Positions 3,173-46,879 of a stretch of 64,000 nucleotides of DNA are shown piece after piece. Made by a program: the position numbers and the translations under genes. The first letter of the stretch is position 1, and each line of letters begins with the position of its first letter. The DNA comes from Candidatus Aenigmatarchaeota archaeon (lineage in GTDB: Archaea > Aenigmatarchaeota > Aenigmatarchaeia > JACPZZ01). The DNA is taken from assembly GCA_016180965.1 (NCBI GenBank), contig JACPAF010000002.1:82529-146528 (forward strand), in the 5' to 3' direction. The notes below the pieces were generated by a model. It made no database searches. It had not been told where the DNA came from and was given only the letters and a program-made list of their open reading frames with translations.

Positions 3173-3224
3173 TTTTTTATCGCAGCTTTAAATCTGAACC
3201 AACCGAATTTCTATTTAACATTTG

Positions 3225-3461
3225 CTGAGGTAGCCAAGCTAGGTCCACGGCGCTGGTCTGGAATGTATAGGAACAAGTTGTCCGCGGGAAAGTGGTTTTC
3301 CAAAAGAGAACTATTACAGTTTATCTTCGGATAGATTGTAAACGTATGTTTGCTAGTTTACCGATGTAAACTGCAGCAGTTTTGCCATGCAAAACTTGCT
3401 TTCCTACGGCCAGAGAGCCAGTGTGCGCAAGCACGCGGGGGTTCAAATCCCTCCCTCAGCG
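3225..3461 (+). tRNA. tRNA-Ser (anticodon GGA) with a 151-nt intron at the canonical 37/38 site (about 3265..3415)
   Basis: Acceptor stem GCTGAGG/CCTCAGC. D arm GCC..GGC. Anticodon stem CTGGT/GCCAG with loop CT-GGA-A. Long variable arm GTGC-GCAA-GCAC. T arm GGGGG-TTCAAAT-CCCTC. A central 4-bp helix CTGG/CCAG is flanked by 3-nt bulges AA|T and AG|A. No CCA is encoded. Confidence 0.85.
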
Positions 3462-3556
3462 TTGGAGTAAAACACAAGCGTCCTTACTGCGAAAAGAGAT
3501 GAAAGCGGTGCAAGGAATCGCGCGATTCGATGCACGTATTGTATTAGATGGTAAAA

Positions 3557-5088: not shown

Positions 5089-5096
5089 TTATGCAA

Positions 5097-5144
5097 CGAA
5101 AACCAAAAGGTTTTCGTGCATAGGAAATTTGATAATTTCCTATG
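5097..5144 (+). repeat. Double-hairpin element, copy 1 (hairpin A CGAAAACC/GGTTTTCG followed by hairpin B CATAGGAAAT/ATTTCCTATG)
   Basis: Two adjacent perfect stems separated by TG. The same architecture recurs at 12603..12645 (minus strand) and 46771..46817. Confidence 0.8.
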
Positions 5145-5180: not shown

Positions 5181-5771
5181 ATGAAAAAAGAAATTGTAAT
5201 CGGCGTTGTTTTATTAACTGCGGTCCTTTTATTTATTGTATCCAAACCCATAATCAATGGACAAAGTGGAAATGATATGAATAAGATTGTTGTGTTAGAG
5301 ACTTCGAAAGGAAATGTAGAGGTACAACTTGATAATGTGAACGCGCCGATCACGACTGCGAATTTTTTGCGTTATGTCAATGAAGGCTTTTACAATGGCA
5401 CCATATTTCATCGTGTGATGCCTGGTTTTATGGCGCAGGGCGGAGGATTTACGCCAAATGGCACGGAAAAACAAACACACGAAGCGATAAAACTTGAATC
5501 AAATAACGGATTGAAAAACAAACGCGGAACGATTGCGATGGCTCGGACTTCGGTTCCGGACAGCGCGACGAGCCAGTTTTTTATCAATGCGGTTGACAAT
5601 TCTTTTTTGGATTACGCGCACGGGAATGACGGTTATGCGGTTTTTGGCAGTGTCACGAAAGGTATGGAGGTCGTCGATTCGATCCTTTCTGTGAAAACGG
5701 GCGATAGAGGATCATTTTCGGATTGGCCTTTGCAGGATATTGTTATAAAAGGCGCTTACGTTAAAAAATAA
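5181..5771 (+). CDS. Peptidyl-prolyl cis-trans isomerase (cyclophilin type) with an N-terminal membrane anchor or signal
   Basis: 'FHRVMPGFMAQGGGF' and 'GTIAMARTSVPDSATSQFFIN' are cyclophilin motifs. The N-terminus is hydrophobic. Confidence 0.92.
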   Translation: MKKEIVIGVVLLTAVLLFIVSKPIINGQSGNDMNKIVVLETSKGNVEVQLDNVNAPITTANFLRYVNEGFYNGTIFHRVMPGFMAQGGGFTPNGTEKQTHEAIKLESNNGLKNKRGTIAMARTSVPDSATSQFFINAVDNSFLDYAHGNDGYAVFGSVTKGMEVVDSILSVKTGDRGSFSDWPLQDIVIKGAYVKK

Positions 5772-12538: not shown

Positions 12539-12602
12539 AATGGGAAAGCATGGGAGTTTTTTGGCAGAGGAAACGCTTATAAAGGCTACCTTATATTATA
12601 GA

Positions 12603-12645
12603 TAGGAAATCATTGATTTCCTAACACGAAAATGATCACTTTTCG
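12603..12645 (-). repeat. Double-hairpin element, copy 2 (inverted orientation)
   Basis: The minus strand reads CGAAAAgtgatcaTTTTCG-tgt-TAGGAAATcaatgATTTCCTA. It sits immediately downstream of the TATA-like 'CCTTATATTATAG' in the rpl3 upstream region. Confidence 0.75.
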
Positions 12646-12692
12646 TTGATTTGGCAAACAAGGTTACGTTCGACAAAAGGATCGAATTTAAA

Positions 12693-12768
12693 GGGCGATA
12701 AGACCTTGCGGTTTTGGTTTCCGCATGGTTGGAATGCCCTCAAACCAAAAACCACACGCTGACGTGGT
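12693..12768 (+). promoter_or_regulatory. Structured leader candidate upstream of rpl3 (hairpin with possible pseudoknot, plus a second hairpin)
   Basis: An outer GGGC (12693) pairs with GCCC (12736), and an inner GCGG/CCGC stem follows. The loop TTTTGGTTT (12712-12720) is perfectly complementary to AAACCAAAA (12742-12750). A further hairpin is ACCAC..GTGGT. Confidence 0.4.
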
Positions 12769-12830
12769 TCTGGCTTAGGAGTTTGAACACTTCTTAGGTG
12801 CAGTTTTCAAGTAGAATGAGGTAGGTTAAT

Positions 12831-37762: not shown

Positions 37763-40700
37763 ATGAAAGACGAGAAGGTTGAAATCAAGCTCAAGATTGG
37801 CGAATTAACCAACCGCTCGGAAGTGGGACGCGGAATAGTAAGAATGGACATGACCGCGATGAAATCGCTGAACATACGCGAAGGCGACATTGTTGAACTG
37901 GAAGGGCAGAAAAAAACGGCCGCAATCGCTGTACGCGCATACCCGGCCGATGTCGGATTAAATATCATAAGAATGGACGGGCTGCTGCGAATGAATGCGT
38001 CCGTCGGACTCGGTGAAATGGTAAAAATAAGGAAAGCCGAGGCCAAAGAAGCAAAAAAAGTTGTTTTAGCCCCGGCACAGAAAGGTATTTTGCTAACCGT
38101 AAGCCCAAATTTATTGAGGCAAAATTTGATAATGCGCCCGCTTGTAAAAGGCGACATTATATCACCTTCACCGGTTTATAGAAAACGCACGAATACCATG
38201 TTCGATGAGTTTTTCGGCGTCGACGTTGAGAATTTCTTTTTTGGCCTGCCGATAGGGTTTCCGGGAGACATAAAATTAATGGTTGTTAAAACCCAGCCGG
38301 AAGGCATTGTAAAAGTTACAGATATCACGGAAATGGAATTGCTGACCGAAGCTGTTGAGGCTGACGAGAAAAAGATACCTGCTGTAACTTACGAAGATAT
38401 AGGCGGTTTAGGCGATGCTATTCAAAAAATTCGGGAGATGGTAGAACTTCCGCTAAGGCATCCGGAATTGTTCGAGAGATTAGGAATTGAACCGCCGAAA
38501 GGAATTTTATTGTACGGGCCACCCGGGACTGGAAAAACATTATTAGCCCGGGCTGTGGCCAATGAATCCGGCGCAAACTTTTTGACGATAAGCGGTCCTG
38601 AGATAATGAGTAAATGGTACGGCCAGAGTTTGCCATACAATCAGGAAATTGTTATTTTAGAGGATGGTTTAATAAAGAAAAAACCAATAGGCGAAGTGGT
38701 TCAAAGCGGAAATAAAAATATAAAAGTTCTAGCTTTCGATGAAAACGGAAAAACCACATTCTCACAAGTCACTGATCTGATAAAGCATAAAAACAGATCA
38801 AAGATTTTAGAAGTGAAAACACAAAGCGGCAGGAAAATTAAAGTCACGGATTACCATTCGCTTTTCACATTAAAGGGCAATAAGATTGAATCGGTAAAAA
38901 CTTCTGAACTCATACCTGGACAATCTTATGTTGCCGTACCTAAGATGATTCCCGTAGCAGAAAACATTGTAAAAGAAATAAATTTCTTGGAATACCTCAG
39001 AAAAAACGATTTAGGCCTTGTTATCAGAGATGTTAAAAACCAGCTAAGACTGGCGACCGAAAAACTTGGCCACAGGGAAACTGCTAAGATGCTTGGATTC
39101 AAAGAAAAATATCTATATGACGTAATTTCAAAAAATGTCGGAATAAAAGTTTCTAAATTTTTAGAATTGATGGAAAAAGCTGCGATTTCGATAGATCCTG
39201 AACAGATTAATATATCTTCCAAAGGAAAATCCCTGCCCGCTAAAATAAAAATTACGAAAGATTTCTGTGAATTTTTAGGCTTATGGATAGCTGAAGGATC
39301 TTTCAATGGGGACGAAGCTGTTAGGATAAGCATCCACCAAAACGAAGTCAAAAAAGTATTGCCATTGATTGAAAGCTTGTTTGGAAAGGCGACATTATAC
39401 CAAAAGAAAGACGGAAAGGGTGTGGACATATACATAACCCACAAGGTTCTGGTAACCTTCATGAAAAATCTTCTTGGAATGGCGGATGGAGCAAGAAGAA
39501 AGAAAGTGCCTGAAATTATATTTTCTACGGGCAGAGAAAATATAGCTGCATTTTTACGCGGCTACTTTTCTGGTGATGGATCGCTGGCCCAAAATCACCG
39601 CAATGTAATTACGATAGAAGGGTCTACGGAAAGTGAAAAACTGGCAAATGATTTGACATACCTTTTAACTTACTTCGGTATAGTTGCGAAAATCTATCCC
39701 AGAGCAAGAGACGGCCACGAAGCTTATAGAGTTTGTTTTGCTGGCGCGCAGCCAATTGAAAAATTCAAGGAGATAGGATTTTTCGACCATGATAAAATGG
39801 AAAAAATAAACAACTATCTAAACGGTGTAAAATGGGACAGGGACGCCCAGATCCCAATAACATCCTCTATCAAATCTTATTTATCGAATGTCAACGATGC
39901 AAAGCCGTGGACGTCATCTTCAACAATAGGCATAGGCAAGCTTGAACAATTTGCATCGCAGACGGAAGGTTTAGGTCATGAGGATATTTTGAGAATCAAA
40001 AAACTGGTTAACATGGACATATACTGGGACAGGGTTGAAGAAATCAATGAAGTAGAAAATGAAGAATATGTTTATGATATTTCTGTAAACCCGGCACAAA
40101 ACTTTGTCGGTGGATTTGGTGGTATATTTGCACACAACTCCGAAGAAAACTTAAGGAAAATTTTCGAGGATGCTGAAAAGAATGCGCCCAGTATAATTTT
40201 CATAGACGAGGTTGATGCCATTGCTCCGAAGAGGGAAGAAGTCACGGGAGAGGTTGAACGAAGAGTCGTTGCGCAATTGTTATCATTGATGGATGGAATG
40301 AGAAAACGCGGGCGTGTTGTTGTTATCGCTGCGACTAACCGCGAAAATGCAATAGACCCTGCGTTGCGAAGGCCTGGCAGGTTTGACCGCGAAGTCGAAA
40401 TAGGCGTGCCGGACCGCAAAGGGCGCCGTGAGGTTTTGCAAATTCATACGAGGAACATGCCTCTTGATAAAACAGTTAGTATTGACGAGTTGGCCGCGAA
40501 AACGCACGGGTTTGTAGGCGCGGATGTTGAGGCGCTGGCCAAAGAAGCTGCGATTTCCGTTTTGCGGCGCGTGTTACCGGAAATACGATGGAGGGAAGAA
40601 GGCGAAATTCCGAGTGAGATAATGGAAAAATTAATTGTTACTTCGGTCGATTTCGACAATGCTTTAAAAATTGTTGAACCGTCGGCTATGCGCGAGGTTT

Positions 40701-41563
40701 TAGTTGAGATCCCAAATGTAAAGTGGTCGGACATCGGCGGGATGGAAGAATTGAAAGAGCGATTACAAGAAGTTATTGAATGGCCTTTGCAGAATCCGGA
40801 CGCTTTCAAGAAAATGGGAATAAAACCGCCCCGCGGCATACTTTTATACGGGCCTCCGGGCTGCGGAAAGACTATGATCGTGAAGGCTGTGGCGAATGAA
40901 GCGGGATTGAATTTCATATCTATCAAAGGGCCGGAACTGCTTTCAAAATGGGTGGGCGAAAGCGAAAAGGCGGTGCGCGAAATATTTCGCAGGGCAAGGC
41001 AGGTATCGCCGGCTATTGTGTTTTTTGATGAAATAGACGCGCTAGCTCCGAGAAGGGGTTTGGAAATGGGATCGCGCGTTACGGAACAGGTTGTTTCTCA
41101 ATTGTTAACTGAAATGTCAGGTTTAGAAGATTTGCATGATGTAATTGTTATCGCAGCGACGAACAGGCCTGACATTTTGGATCCAGCTTTGTTGAGACCG
41201 GGACGCTTTGACCGTCACATACTCGTGACCGCTCCGGACGCGGACGCAAGGGAAAAGATTTTCAAGGTGCACACCAGCGGGATGCCGTTAAACAAAGACG
41301 TTTCGATAGAAAAAATTGCAAAAGAAACTGAAGGTTATTCCGGTGCGGACATCGAGGCGTTGTGCCGCGAAGCTGCAATCTCGGCTTTGAGGGAAGACAT
41401 TAAGGCCAAAGAGGTTAGATGGAGGCATTTCGAGGCAATGTTGAAAGTTATAAAACCATCGCTGTCGCCGGAATTAATGCGCGCATACCAGGCCGTATTC
41501 GAAATGATGAAAAAGCCCGACAAAAAAGATGAGCTGCAGGAACAACTGAGTTACGTGGGATGA
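37763..41563 (+). CDS. cdc48: CDC48/VCP-type AAA+ ATPase (two AAA domains) interrupted by an intein in D1
   Basis: N-domain, then D1 Walker A 'GPPGTGKT', then the intein, then 'IIFIDEVD', then D2 'GPPGCGKT' and 'IVFFDEID'. The protein is 762 aa without the intein. Confidence 0.95.
38627..40138 (+). mobile_element. Intein (504 aa) with a LAGLIDADG homing-endonuclease domain, inserted in Cdc48 D1
   Basis: The host sequence 'SKWYGQ|SEENLRK' is restored on excision. The intein starts '[14 protein letters not shown]'. Block B is 'VTDYHSLF'. LAGLIDADG motifs are '[11 protein letters not shown]' and '[11 protein letters not shown]'. It ends 'GIFAHN' followed by Ser. Confidence 0.9.
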
Positions 41564-45869: not shown

Positions 45870-46745
45870 TTATGCAGTCGTAACAACCGGCTTGTCGCGC
45901 ACTATGACAGTGTGCTCGGCTTGTGCGACTTTTCCGTGTCCGGCTTCGCGTAAAACTGCGTGCGGTTGTATGGCTCCCGCAGCGACCAATTGCTTAACGG
46001 CCAAATCGAATTTTATCGGCGTAATTCCTTTTATCCAGCGCTCACAAAATGGTAACGATAAAAAATCCTTTTTTGCCAAATTTAGAACCTGCCTGCTTTC
46101 AGGCAGTCTTGTGTTGTGATCTTTCAGATAACTAAAAATGTAAACACGTTCGCTGTCTTTTACTGTTCCCGCGCCATCGGTTGCGAAAGGTTCGACAGCG
46201 AAGACGTCATCGACCTTGAATTCGTAATTGATTTTGTTCCGAATGTTCGGTATTGTAACCGGGCCGTGGAATGTGAATTTGTCCAAGCTGTGGCCTGTTA
46301 AATTGTTTACGGCACGGAAACCCTTGGATTCGATTTCGCTCTCAATAACCTCCGAAACGTCGCTAACTTTTTTGCCAGGTTTCATAATTTTCACTGCGGC
46401 GTTAACAGCGTCTGTAACAGCTGTTATCATATCACTTTTTTCCGAGTTGAATGTGACTGCACCGTCGGCTATGTAACCGTCGATATGCGCGCCTAAATCC
46501 ACTTTTACGAAATCTCCATCTTTAACAACCGTTTCGTCATTGGGAATTGGGGTGTAATGCGCGGCTATGTCATTGATGGATATGTTGGCGGGAAATGCGG
46601 GCATCGCGCCTTTCCTGATAATCTCATTTTCCACTGTATCCGCGATGTCTATGATTTTATCCCCGGGCTTTATGCGCAACGCTGCGTAAATGTCTTTCAA
46701 TATTTTTCCGGCTTTCGTATAATTTTCGAAAATTTTCGCGTCCAT
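45870..46745 (-). CDS. map: Methionine aminopeptidase, type 2 (archaeal)
   Basis: 'FPANISINDIAAHYTP', 'VDLGAHIDGYIAD' and 'GHSL' metal-ligand regions. Confidence 0.92.
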   Translation of the reverse strand: MDAKIFENYTKAGKILKDIYAALRIKPGDKIIDIADTVENEIIRKGAMPAFPANISINDIAAHYTPIPNDETVVKDGDFVKVDLGAHIDGYIADGAVTFNSEKSDMITAVTDAVNAAVKIMKPGKKVSDVSEVIESEIESKGFRAVNNLTGHSLDKFTFHGPVTIPNIRNKINYEFKVDDVFAVEPFATDGAGTVKDSERVYIFSYLKDHNTRLPESRQVLNLAKKDFLSLPFCERWIKGITPIKFDLAVKQLVAAGAIQPHAVLREAGHGKVAQAEHTVIVRDKPVVTTA

Positions 46746-46770
46746 ATCAAATTCCTTTTTGGTAAAACAA

Positions 46771-46817
46771 CGAAAATCAACGGATTTTCGTGCACAGGAA
46801 ATCCTTGATTTCCTGTG
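46771..46817 (+). repeat. Double-hairpin element, copy 3
   Basis: CGAAAATC-aacg-GATTTTCG-tg-CACAGGAAAT-ccttg-ATTTCCTGTG. Both stems carry compensatory changes relative to copy 1. Confidence 0.8.
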
Positions 46818-46879
46818 AGGCCTTTGAGAACTCCAAAAACTATTTTGGTCCCAAGACCTGAATACAATATTAACTTATG

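Follow-up and report, generated by a model that had tools for sequence, protein, structure and literature searches.

We find that a double-hairpin sequence occurring three times in a stretch of the genome of a Candidatus Aenigmatarchaeota archaeon probably belongs to a family of miniature DNA repeats, non-coding, lineage-specific and insertion-polymorphic, that are moved in trans as a hairpin unit. The stretch, which we refer to as the window, is 64,000 nucleotides long (C3:82529-146528) and belongs to a genome of 731 kb in 7 contigs (44% G+C; here G000) that is archaeal by its L3 protein of 330 aa and its many tRNA genes with introns; the window is present in four groundwater metagenomes. The unit appears to be a REP/MITE-like element (REP, repetitive extragenic palindrome; MITE, miniature inverted-repeat transposable element) and apparently an undescribed one, and searchable papers gave us no account of comparable repeats from Aenigmatarchaeota or from other DPANN archaea. 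Judged from comparisons between related genomes, units are gained and lost as exact blocks, without target-site duplication, and their sites are tolerant DNA: leaders between promoter and start codon, spacers between genes, introns in tRNAs and loops that belong to another hairpin family.

Results

Anatomy of the double-hairpin unit

Two abutting modules, each a palindrome of 22-26 nt with 5'-CA...TG-3' borders, make up the unit, which measures 48-51 nt. Module A reads CA-ACGAAAAnn-loop-nnTTTTCGT-G and has one unpaired A, and module B reads CAyAGGAAAy-loop-rTTTCCTrTG. Copy 1 thus begins with CA and continues with hairpin A (ACGAAAACC-AAAA-GGTTTTCGT), a G and hairpin B (CATAGGAAATT-TGAT-AATTTCCTATG). 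The copies in the window are as follows.

5094..5144, plus strand: copy 1, double-hairpin unit (model score 75.1 bits; single-stranded DNA fold -18.2 kcal/mol, z -9.1)
12601..12648, minus strand: copy 2, degenerate double-hairpin unit (model score 53 bits; z -5.2)
46768..46817, plus strand: copy 3, double-hairpin unit (model score 75.8 bits; z -9.0)

The initial annotation had reported the element at these three places, and both inspection and pattern counts against dinucleotide shuffles bear this out: in the window, AGGAAAT-N4-7-ATTTCCT (hairpin B) has 3 matches where 0.00 are expected, CGAAAA-N5-9-TTTTCG (hairpin A) has 3 where 0.22 are expected, and the two patterns adjoin each other at 3/3 copies. 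Its positions were right and its extents slightly short, because an invariant CA precedes hairpin A; the limits listed above include it.

As single-stranded DNA, either strand of copies 1 and 3 forms two hairpins (-18.2/-17.6 and -18.5/-17.5 kcal/mol, respectively; z about -9 and -7.5 to -9). The fold of copy 2 is weaker (-11.1/-10.8 kcal/mol, z -5.2/-4.2); its hairpin A has been reduced to a 7-bp stem with a 7-nt loop, and one base is missing ahead of hairpin B. Copies 1 and 3 are intact, ordinary family members specific to this species, whereas copy 2 is an ordinary member that is older, common to a sister species and decaying.

Covariation and the level of constraint

We fitted 104 copies (100 distinct) from 8 genomes to a covariance model. 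Among the 100 distinct copies, 97.4% of stem cells are paired, compared with 85.1% in shuffles and 26-51% when the partners are slid, and both-sided changes occur at 16/20 stem pairs, in 296 cells. An unfitted MAFFT alignment of the 13 copies of this genome agrees with the fitted picture, with 12/20 pairs changed on both sides and 94% of cells paired. The compensatory stem changes that had been read from three copies alone are therefore found in the family at large, which supports the earlier inference of selection on pairing or dyad symmetry. Conservation is uneven along the unit: all copies (100/100) have the 5' CA ahead of stem A, 99% have the linker G, and ACGAAAA/TTTTCGT and AGGAAA/TTTCCT, which form the lower stems, hardly vary. 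The two loop-proximal pairs retain their pairing although their sequence is close to random, as is that of the loops, with 55 distinct A loops and 46 distinct B loops.

The 1995 stem cells comprise 1925 Watson-Crick pairs, 34 A·C, 18 G·T and 18 other combinations. Because G·T is rarer than A·C, the pattern argues for Watson-Crick symmetry of both strands and not for an RNA fold. The constraint thus appears to be complementarity on both strands, as would fit a DNA hairpin, cruciform or palindrome, and not the folding of one RNA strand. By contrast, the leader of the L3 operon, which lies beside copy 2, contains G·U pairs, and 7/7 genomes compared have it in the same position. We rejected a small RNA gene or known RNA family: the unit has no fixed relation to promoters and no wobble tolerance, and Rfam 15 gave no match in the whole window at gathering thresholds, with a chance-level match only around copy 2.

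Family size and phyletic range

A relaxed pattern search combined with a covariance model built from the genome's own copies found 13 copies in G000, scoring 53-78 bits. At E<=1e-5 the covariance model finds copies in 8/8 genomes of the order (14, 10, 31, 16, 17, 45, 12 and 7), the richest being G004 with 45. The scan of this genome and its relatives with such a model, which the initial annotation had proposed, therefore yields many further copies with covariation. Outside the order, 0/33 genomes from other families of the class carry a unit, and in an exact-pattern scan of 185,579 species genomes of the Genome Taxonomy Database (GTDB) matches are confined to these Aenigmatarchaeota metagenome-assembled genomes (MAGs) plus one chance match. 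The congener contigs matched in that scan come from Candidatus Aenigmatarchaeota MAGs from groundwater; the single out-of-clade match, in a Nitrososphaerales MAG, lies inside coding sequence, lacks the second hairpin and was set aside. No unit was found in IMG/VR.

The copies leave traces in metagenome assemblies. At copy 3 the depth over the unit exceeds that of the flanks 13- to 33-fold and contigs break at 46764-46768 and at 46818, while at copy 1 the matches of other metagenome contigs begin exactly at 5094.

Turnover of units between species

Copy 1 lies 5 nt past the stop codon of a 136-aa open reading frame (ORF) and abuts the TATA-like sequence tttattaaaa that precedes the cyclophilin gene, whose ATG is at 5181; it is upstream of that box, as had been described. 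The cyclophilin gene was found in 5 genomes, G000 and 4 congeners, and these 4 congeners lack the copy; synteny in G002 differs upstream, and this locus offers no clean empty site for comparison.

The position of copy 2 can be fixed more exactly with reference to the L3 operon promoter.

12573..12600, plus strand: TATA-like region cttataaaggctaccttatattatagat in the L3 operon promoter (conserved in 6 genomes); marks the copy 2 insertion point

Copy 2 sits exactly between the TATA box (ttatattata) and a conserved leader starting atttgg, and the earlier placement downstream of a TATA-like box before the ribosomal operon was correct. Among the 7 genomes compared upstream of L3, where the G003 contig stops short of the TATA region, the copy is shared with G002 only and the site is empty in G001, G004 and G006, in which the TATA box abuts atttgg. 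A co-occurring relative in metagenome run X2 also lacks copy 2 (joint 12600>12690, 39 diverged letters). G006 has an independent unit farther down the L3 leader, in the loop of a CAAACTTTT/AAAGTTTG hairpin, and that loop is empty in G001.

Copy 3, read on the minus strand, presents hairpin B, hairpin A and TTG, and lies 22 nt upstream of the ATG of methionine aminopeptidase (MetAP).

45870-46745, minus strand: methionine aminopeptidase (MetAP), gene downstream of copy 3
46818..46859, plus strand: neighbouring hairpin module AGGCCTTTGAGAAC-TCCAAAA-ACTA-TTTTGG-TCCCAAGACCT, outside the 50-nt unit

Copy 3 is missing at the orthologous site in 6/6 congeners. G003 has the same cassette of TATA box, hairpin and Shine-Dalgarno sequence minus the ~48 nt of copy 3; in G001, G002 and G004 the DUF192 and MetAP genes nearly abut; and in G005 and G006 other hairpin modules occupy precisely the copy 3 slot. 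In one subfamily (copies d, g and k of G000 and several in relatives) the unit is found together with the neighbouring module, which occurs without a unit upstream of MetAP in G003, G005 and G006, and the right flank AGGTCTTTGRGAAC is common to many unit copies. We also note that the DUF192-MetAP spacer (46746-46879; loci L042-L047) measures 5-15 nt in three species and is a cassette of 90-250 nt in four, and that the slot after 'ctcaaagacc' holds different hairpin modules according to species, including a GAAGCATACC...GGTATGCTTC family that is also found upstream of the only TnpB gene of G000 (C2:236626).

Beyond the window, ~15 unit sites of relatives could be mapped onto G000 by both flanking ORFs, and 2 of them are occupied in G000. 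The closest pair, G000 and G002, whose flanking proteins are 92-98% identical, provides filled and empty sites that differ by a 49-nt block in a gene leader (C3:17092/17100), by a 50-nt block in a tRNA-Tyr intron and, after a stop codon, by a 97-nt composite block; in the aIF5A leader a 49-nt block, here filled in G000, lies in the loop of a TTAAACTTT/AAAGTTTAA hairpin. G003 and G000 differ by a 50-nt block between convergent genes. At the clean filled/empty pairs examined we saw no target duplication, with an ambiguity of <=1 nt; the target side next to CA is A/T-rich, and the flanks contain no fixed word. At the aIF5A loop G001 (L177, C17) has a single chimeric hairpin, AGGAAAAGC-TTT-GCTTTTCG-TTG, composed of the 5' arm of B and the 3' arm of A, as though recombination between the GGAAA and CGAAAA arms had collapsed a unit.

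These comparisons bear on the suggestion that the two palindromes are operators of one or two dimeric transcription factors controlling a regulon. The stems are perfect dyads with conserved half-sites, and copies 1 and 2 and copy a of G000 abut TATA-like boxes, as one might expect of operators. Nevertheless, the spacing of the half-sites varies (loops of 3-7 nt or more), the dyad centres covary, which a protein reading double-stranded DNA would not need, occupancy of sites is not conserved between species, copies lie in tRNA introns and between convergent genes, and the copy number runs from 7 to 45 among congeners. We therefore regard the operator explanation as very improbable. More generally, a conserved operator or small RNA gene would be kept at orthologous loci, and the units are not. 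Two narrower proposals were also rejected. In a symmetric promoter of two TFB recognition elements (BRE) around a TATA box, CGAAAA does resemble the archaeal BRE and the spacing fits, but the 8 central bases are not A/T-rich and covary as a stem; a 5' untranslated element of a translation-related regulon, an idea prompted by the order B, A, gene in G000, is contradicted by its non-conservation in sister species and by the family-wide orientation counts.

Where the copies sit

All copies in the 8 genomes lie outside genes or at gene ends, and the 80 intergenic copies are distributed as follows.

Tandem genes, gene start beside hairpin A: 29/80 intergenic copies
Tandem genes, reverse orientation: 20/80 intergenic copies
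Divergent genes: 16/80 intergenic copies
Convergent genes: 9/80 intergenic copies
Gene called on one side only: 6/80 intergenic copies

The claim that orientation is independent of the direction of flanking genes thus holds across the family. Hairpin A is commonly trailed by TTG and a T-rich target, and most copies are in leaders or introns, with 9 of ~80 between convergent genes. Candidates for in-frame insertion into protein genes, which rested on crude ORF calls, proved to be over-extended ORFs, tRNA regions or C-terminal run-ons. One ORF of 423 aa (G000 C4:17376-18647), encoding a putative membrane or secreted protein, reads through a unit and takes its last ~24 codons and its stop from it.

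Anticodon-loop introns of various tRNAs, as called by ARAGORN, hold 9 copies, and 2 further copies, forming an inverted pair, were read by hand in a ~155-nt tRNA-Met(CAT) intron. By inspection, no bulge-helix-bulge splice motif formed by the unit is evident. The tRNA-Met(CAT) gene in question (G000 C3:173421-173715; L001 about 922-1216), which lies outside the window, apparently contains two introns, the second of about 59 nt in the T-loop; ARAGORN makes no call there, and a tRNA-Tyr(GTA) gene at C3:46130-46300 resembles it. The inverted doublet is found as a ~135-nt block at four places: one in the tRNA-Met intron of G000, one following a protein gene of G001 and two in G005.

The loops of other hairpins are a preferred landing place, because inverted-repeat flanks of at least 6 bp surround 26/104 units when 8.9 are expected; these flanks belong mostly to one other hairpin family. 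The tRNA-Arg(CCT) intron illustrates the arrangement, being 41 nt long in G000 and 102 nt long in G006, where a unit lies within the loop of the resident hairpin.

The same positions raise the question of whether the unit serves the host in cis, at promoters or in RNA: as a transcript-stabilising hairpin in leaders or at processing sites, as a roadblock or terminator, or as the binding site of an abundant RNA- or DNA-binding protein, recruited repeatedly before housekeeping genes. In G000 the order B-A-TTG(TTTT) is found 22-190 nt ahead of such genes (aIF5A, FtsZ, NDK, the L3 operon, MetAP, KsgA and DUF655), there is a mild family-wide excess of the B-A-gene orientation (29 vs 20), and on the would-be RNA strand mismatches compatible with G·U are in excess (34 vs 18). 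Bacterial REPs, moreover, influence mRNA stability and termination (PMC12306157). However, the unit is not conserved at orthologous promoters, even where flanking proteins are 92-98% identical; units also lie between convergent genes, in tRNA introns and in the opposite orientation; and there is no Rfam match. The location of copy 2, between the TATA box of an essential operon and its leader, and that of the G006 copy, within the leader itself, make a strong terminator unlikely. Across the family the orientation bias is weak. We conclude that the distribution of units cannot be explained by a host function in RNA or at promoters, and we consider this account of the family quite unlikely.

Search for a mobilising enzyme

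A Y1 transposase (PF01797) is encoded in 2/8 genomes of the order, and TnpB in 7/8. We rejected mobilisation by IS200/IS605 elements: the distribution of TnpA and TnpB does not match that of the units, and units neighbouring TnpB are at inconsistent positions. In G005, for example, a unit lies within 200 nt of 3/20 TnpB genes, in no consistent place. Around TnpB and TnpA genes we saw no insertion sequence (IS) with unit-like ends. In G007 two units flank a gene that might have been a transposase; it encodes NAD synthase.

In G006 the IS200 tnpA, which is intact in G005, is split by a related 48-nt unit of two hairpins. The insert (L076 1318-1369; G006:C5 about 95317-95368; compared with L075, G005:C8) follows codon 16 and opens with an in-frame TGA, and the exon bases on its two sides, ACGTG and CACGT, could pair.

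It is possible, in principle, that units spread or are homogenised without a dedicated transposase, by template switching or ectopic gene conversion between hairpin-forming sequences at replication. The A- and T-tract arms (GAAAA/TTTTC, GGAAA/TTTCC and CTTTT/AAAAG) would then serve as microhomology, and palindrome correction would restore the stems without selection and would also give strict Watson-Crick pairing. This is the main rival to transposition in trans, and several observations favour it: no cognate transposase was found, all hairpin families of G000 have A/T-run arms, similarity between unit end and target is frequent at junctions (for instance TTTTCGTTG vs the resident TTTTGTT upstream of MetAP), and G001 has the collapsed chimeric hairpin. 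It nevertheless accounts less well for ends that are exact and identical at unrelated sites, with CA in 100/100 copies; some targets have no similarity to the unit (caaat|cttct, for example), and the combination of conserved lower stems and linker with free loops looks like recognition by a protein. On balance, we think template switching unlikely.

Neighbouring sequence features

Several other features of these genomes deserve mention. The L3-operon leader (window 12649-12830, core about 12690-12775) extends over ~180 nt from the TATA box to the L3 start and is conserved in 7 genomes. Its fold is a multi-stem structure (GGGC...GCCC) that includes G·U pairs and 2 covarying pairs, and the leader has no Rfam match; a loop, TTTTGGTTT, is complementary to the downstream AAACCAAAA, suggesting a possible pseudoknot. 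The structure may represent a hitherto undescribed leader through which the archaeal L3-L4-L23-L2 operon regulates itself.

A second hairpin family, GACNCATAC-N3-GTATGNGTC, has a 9-bp stem and a 3-nt loop and is present in at least 10 copies in G000, 10-50 nt from tRNA genes and mostly upstream of them. Examples are:

C2:2876-2896, 41014-41034, 98452-98472 and 126446-126466
C3:42266-42286
C5:7404-7424 and 40200-40220

A related but distinct double-hairpin family in G000 has the form TTGAGAAAAyC-loop-GrTTTTCTCAA followed by (A)ATAGnnnnC-loop-GnnnnCTAT(T) and scores 34-45 bits with the unit model. Its copies are:

C2:38326-38373, 66546-66592 and 228132-228182
C5:15952-15999
C6:1391-1439
C7:29015-29064

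Lastly, a default tRNA scan of the window is empty, and with introns allowed ARAGORN finds a tRNA-Ser(GGA) gene at 3223-3462 whose 144-nt intron contains a AGTTTTGC-CAT-GCAAAACT hairpin.

Discussion

Three readings of the element had been put forward in the initial annotation: a small structured RNA, a pair of operators and a REP/MITE-like element. The last of these is the one that stands, given the many copies, the mostly empty orthologous sites and the 49-50-nt insertions and deletions; the first two are disfavoured for the reasons given above.

How might such a unit move? We propose that a trans-acting enzyme specific for both structure and sequence would recognise the folded single-stranded hairpin pair or an extruded cruciform, making use of the sequence-specific lower stems and the CA/TG borders. 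The enzyme would cut at these borders and paste the unit into single-stranded A/T-rich targets such as the loops of hairpins. Only copies that had kept both stems would stay mobilisable, which could explain why the stems covary. Movement of this kind would resemble that of REPs and IS200/IS605 ends by HUH/Y1 transposases. We suggest, more tentatively, that Aenigmatarchaeota may possess a form of hairpin transposition that uses neither a RAYT (REP-associated tyrosine transposase) nor an IS200-type transposase and that pastes into hairpin loops and tRNA introns without duplication. If so, nested hairpin arrays would be built stepwise, and the long or multiple tRNA introns of these tiny genomes would grow in the same manner.

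Several points weigh against the view that the units are mobile repeats moved in trans. No cognate transposase was found: the Y1 genes in two of the eight genomes, which do not include G000, belong to ordinary IS200 copies with different end hairpins, one of them itself interrupted, and G004, which has the most units, lacks both TnpB and TnpA. All of the evidence for mobility is comparative between species, with no direct excision or insertion event, and gain and loss are not always separable, since at aIF5A the more distant G001 has a collapsed derivative while the closer G002 is empty. The alignment behind the pair counts was itself fitted to the model. Finally, 7/8 gene-start copies in G000 are oriented B, A, gene, the genes being housekeeping ones, and the family-wide counts lean the same way, both in orientation (29 vs 20) and in the excess of A·C over G·T. 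These last observations leave room for some host-level or RNA-level effect of the unit.

REP-like palindromic repeats are well studied in bacteria, where they are moved by a dedicated tyrosine transposase. The present family is of interest in that its mobiliser is not among the usual candidates, in its targeting of loops and tRNA introns, and in being tolerated in core promoters of a streamlined genome; these genomes are smaller than 1 Mb and yet retain dozens of units, even between the TATA box of the main ribosomal-protein operon and its leader, and in tRNA introns. In practical terms, the units break metagenome assemblies and can mislead gene callers, since ORFs run through them, and they provide a fine-scale strain and species marker for the clade.

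Comparison with known systems

Prokaryotic MITEs include SM1-SM4 of Sulfolobus, the Correia elements of Neisseria and the palindromic elements of Rickettsia (RPEs) (PMC3184786). Like them, the unit is small, non-coding and insertion-polymorphic between close relatives, and lands in leaders and occasionally in genes. It differs in having no terminal inverted repeats beyond CA...TG and no target-site duplication, in its length of 50 nt, which is far below typical MITE size, and in that no parent IS with the same ends was found.

With palindrome-associated transposable elements (PATEs) and IS200/IS605 elements the unit shares subterminal hairpins of the sort recognised in single-stranded DNA, and insertion without duplication beside a short target (PMC6006769, PMC3119063). 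However, the IS200 copies of the clade have other hairpins, no fixed target word of 4-5 nt lies beside the units, and the copy number of the unit is independent of the presence of TnpA or TnpB. The hairpins of IS608 carry an unpaired base in the stem, as does one stem of the unit. IS1397 and ISKpn1 insert into the loops of REP palindromes, and the unit too prefers the loops of another palindromic repeat; those elements, in contrast, are full-size members of the IS3 family with a DDE transposase and target duplications.

In Thermoproteales, archaeal tRNA introns were reportedly gained by transposition, in work attributed to Fujishima et al. in 2010. In that case as here, tRNA introns at orthologous positions differ between relatives and carry repeats, but the unit enlarges existing introns, and nothing indicates that it creates a splice motif.

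The bacterial elements known as REPs, BIMEs (bacterial interspersed mosaic elements) and REPINs (REP doublets forming hairpins) are mobilised by RAYTs, which are Y1 HUH transposases, and they resemble the unit in being short extragenic palindromes with covarying stems and variable loops (PMC3116915, PMC3733652). The likeness extends to the tens of copies per genome, the inverted doublets that travel as a block, the absence of target duplication, and the existence of lineage-specific, vertically inherited families with turnover at single sites. The unit differs in that it belongs to an archaeon (DPANN, Aenigmatarchaeota) and combines two different hairpins in tandem; its invariant tag is CA, not GTAG or CGTC, and the positions before CA are only A/T-rich. 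There is no RAYT with the unit, the Y1 genes of 2/8 genomes having unrelated end hairpins, and units enter tRNA introns and the loops of other hairpins. The family thus fails on the GTAG/CGTC tag and on a cognate RAYT, and yet, among the systems considered here, it is to bacterial REPs and REPINs that it behaves closest.

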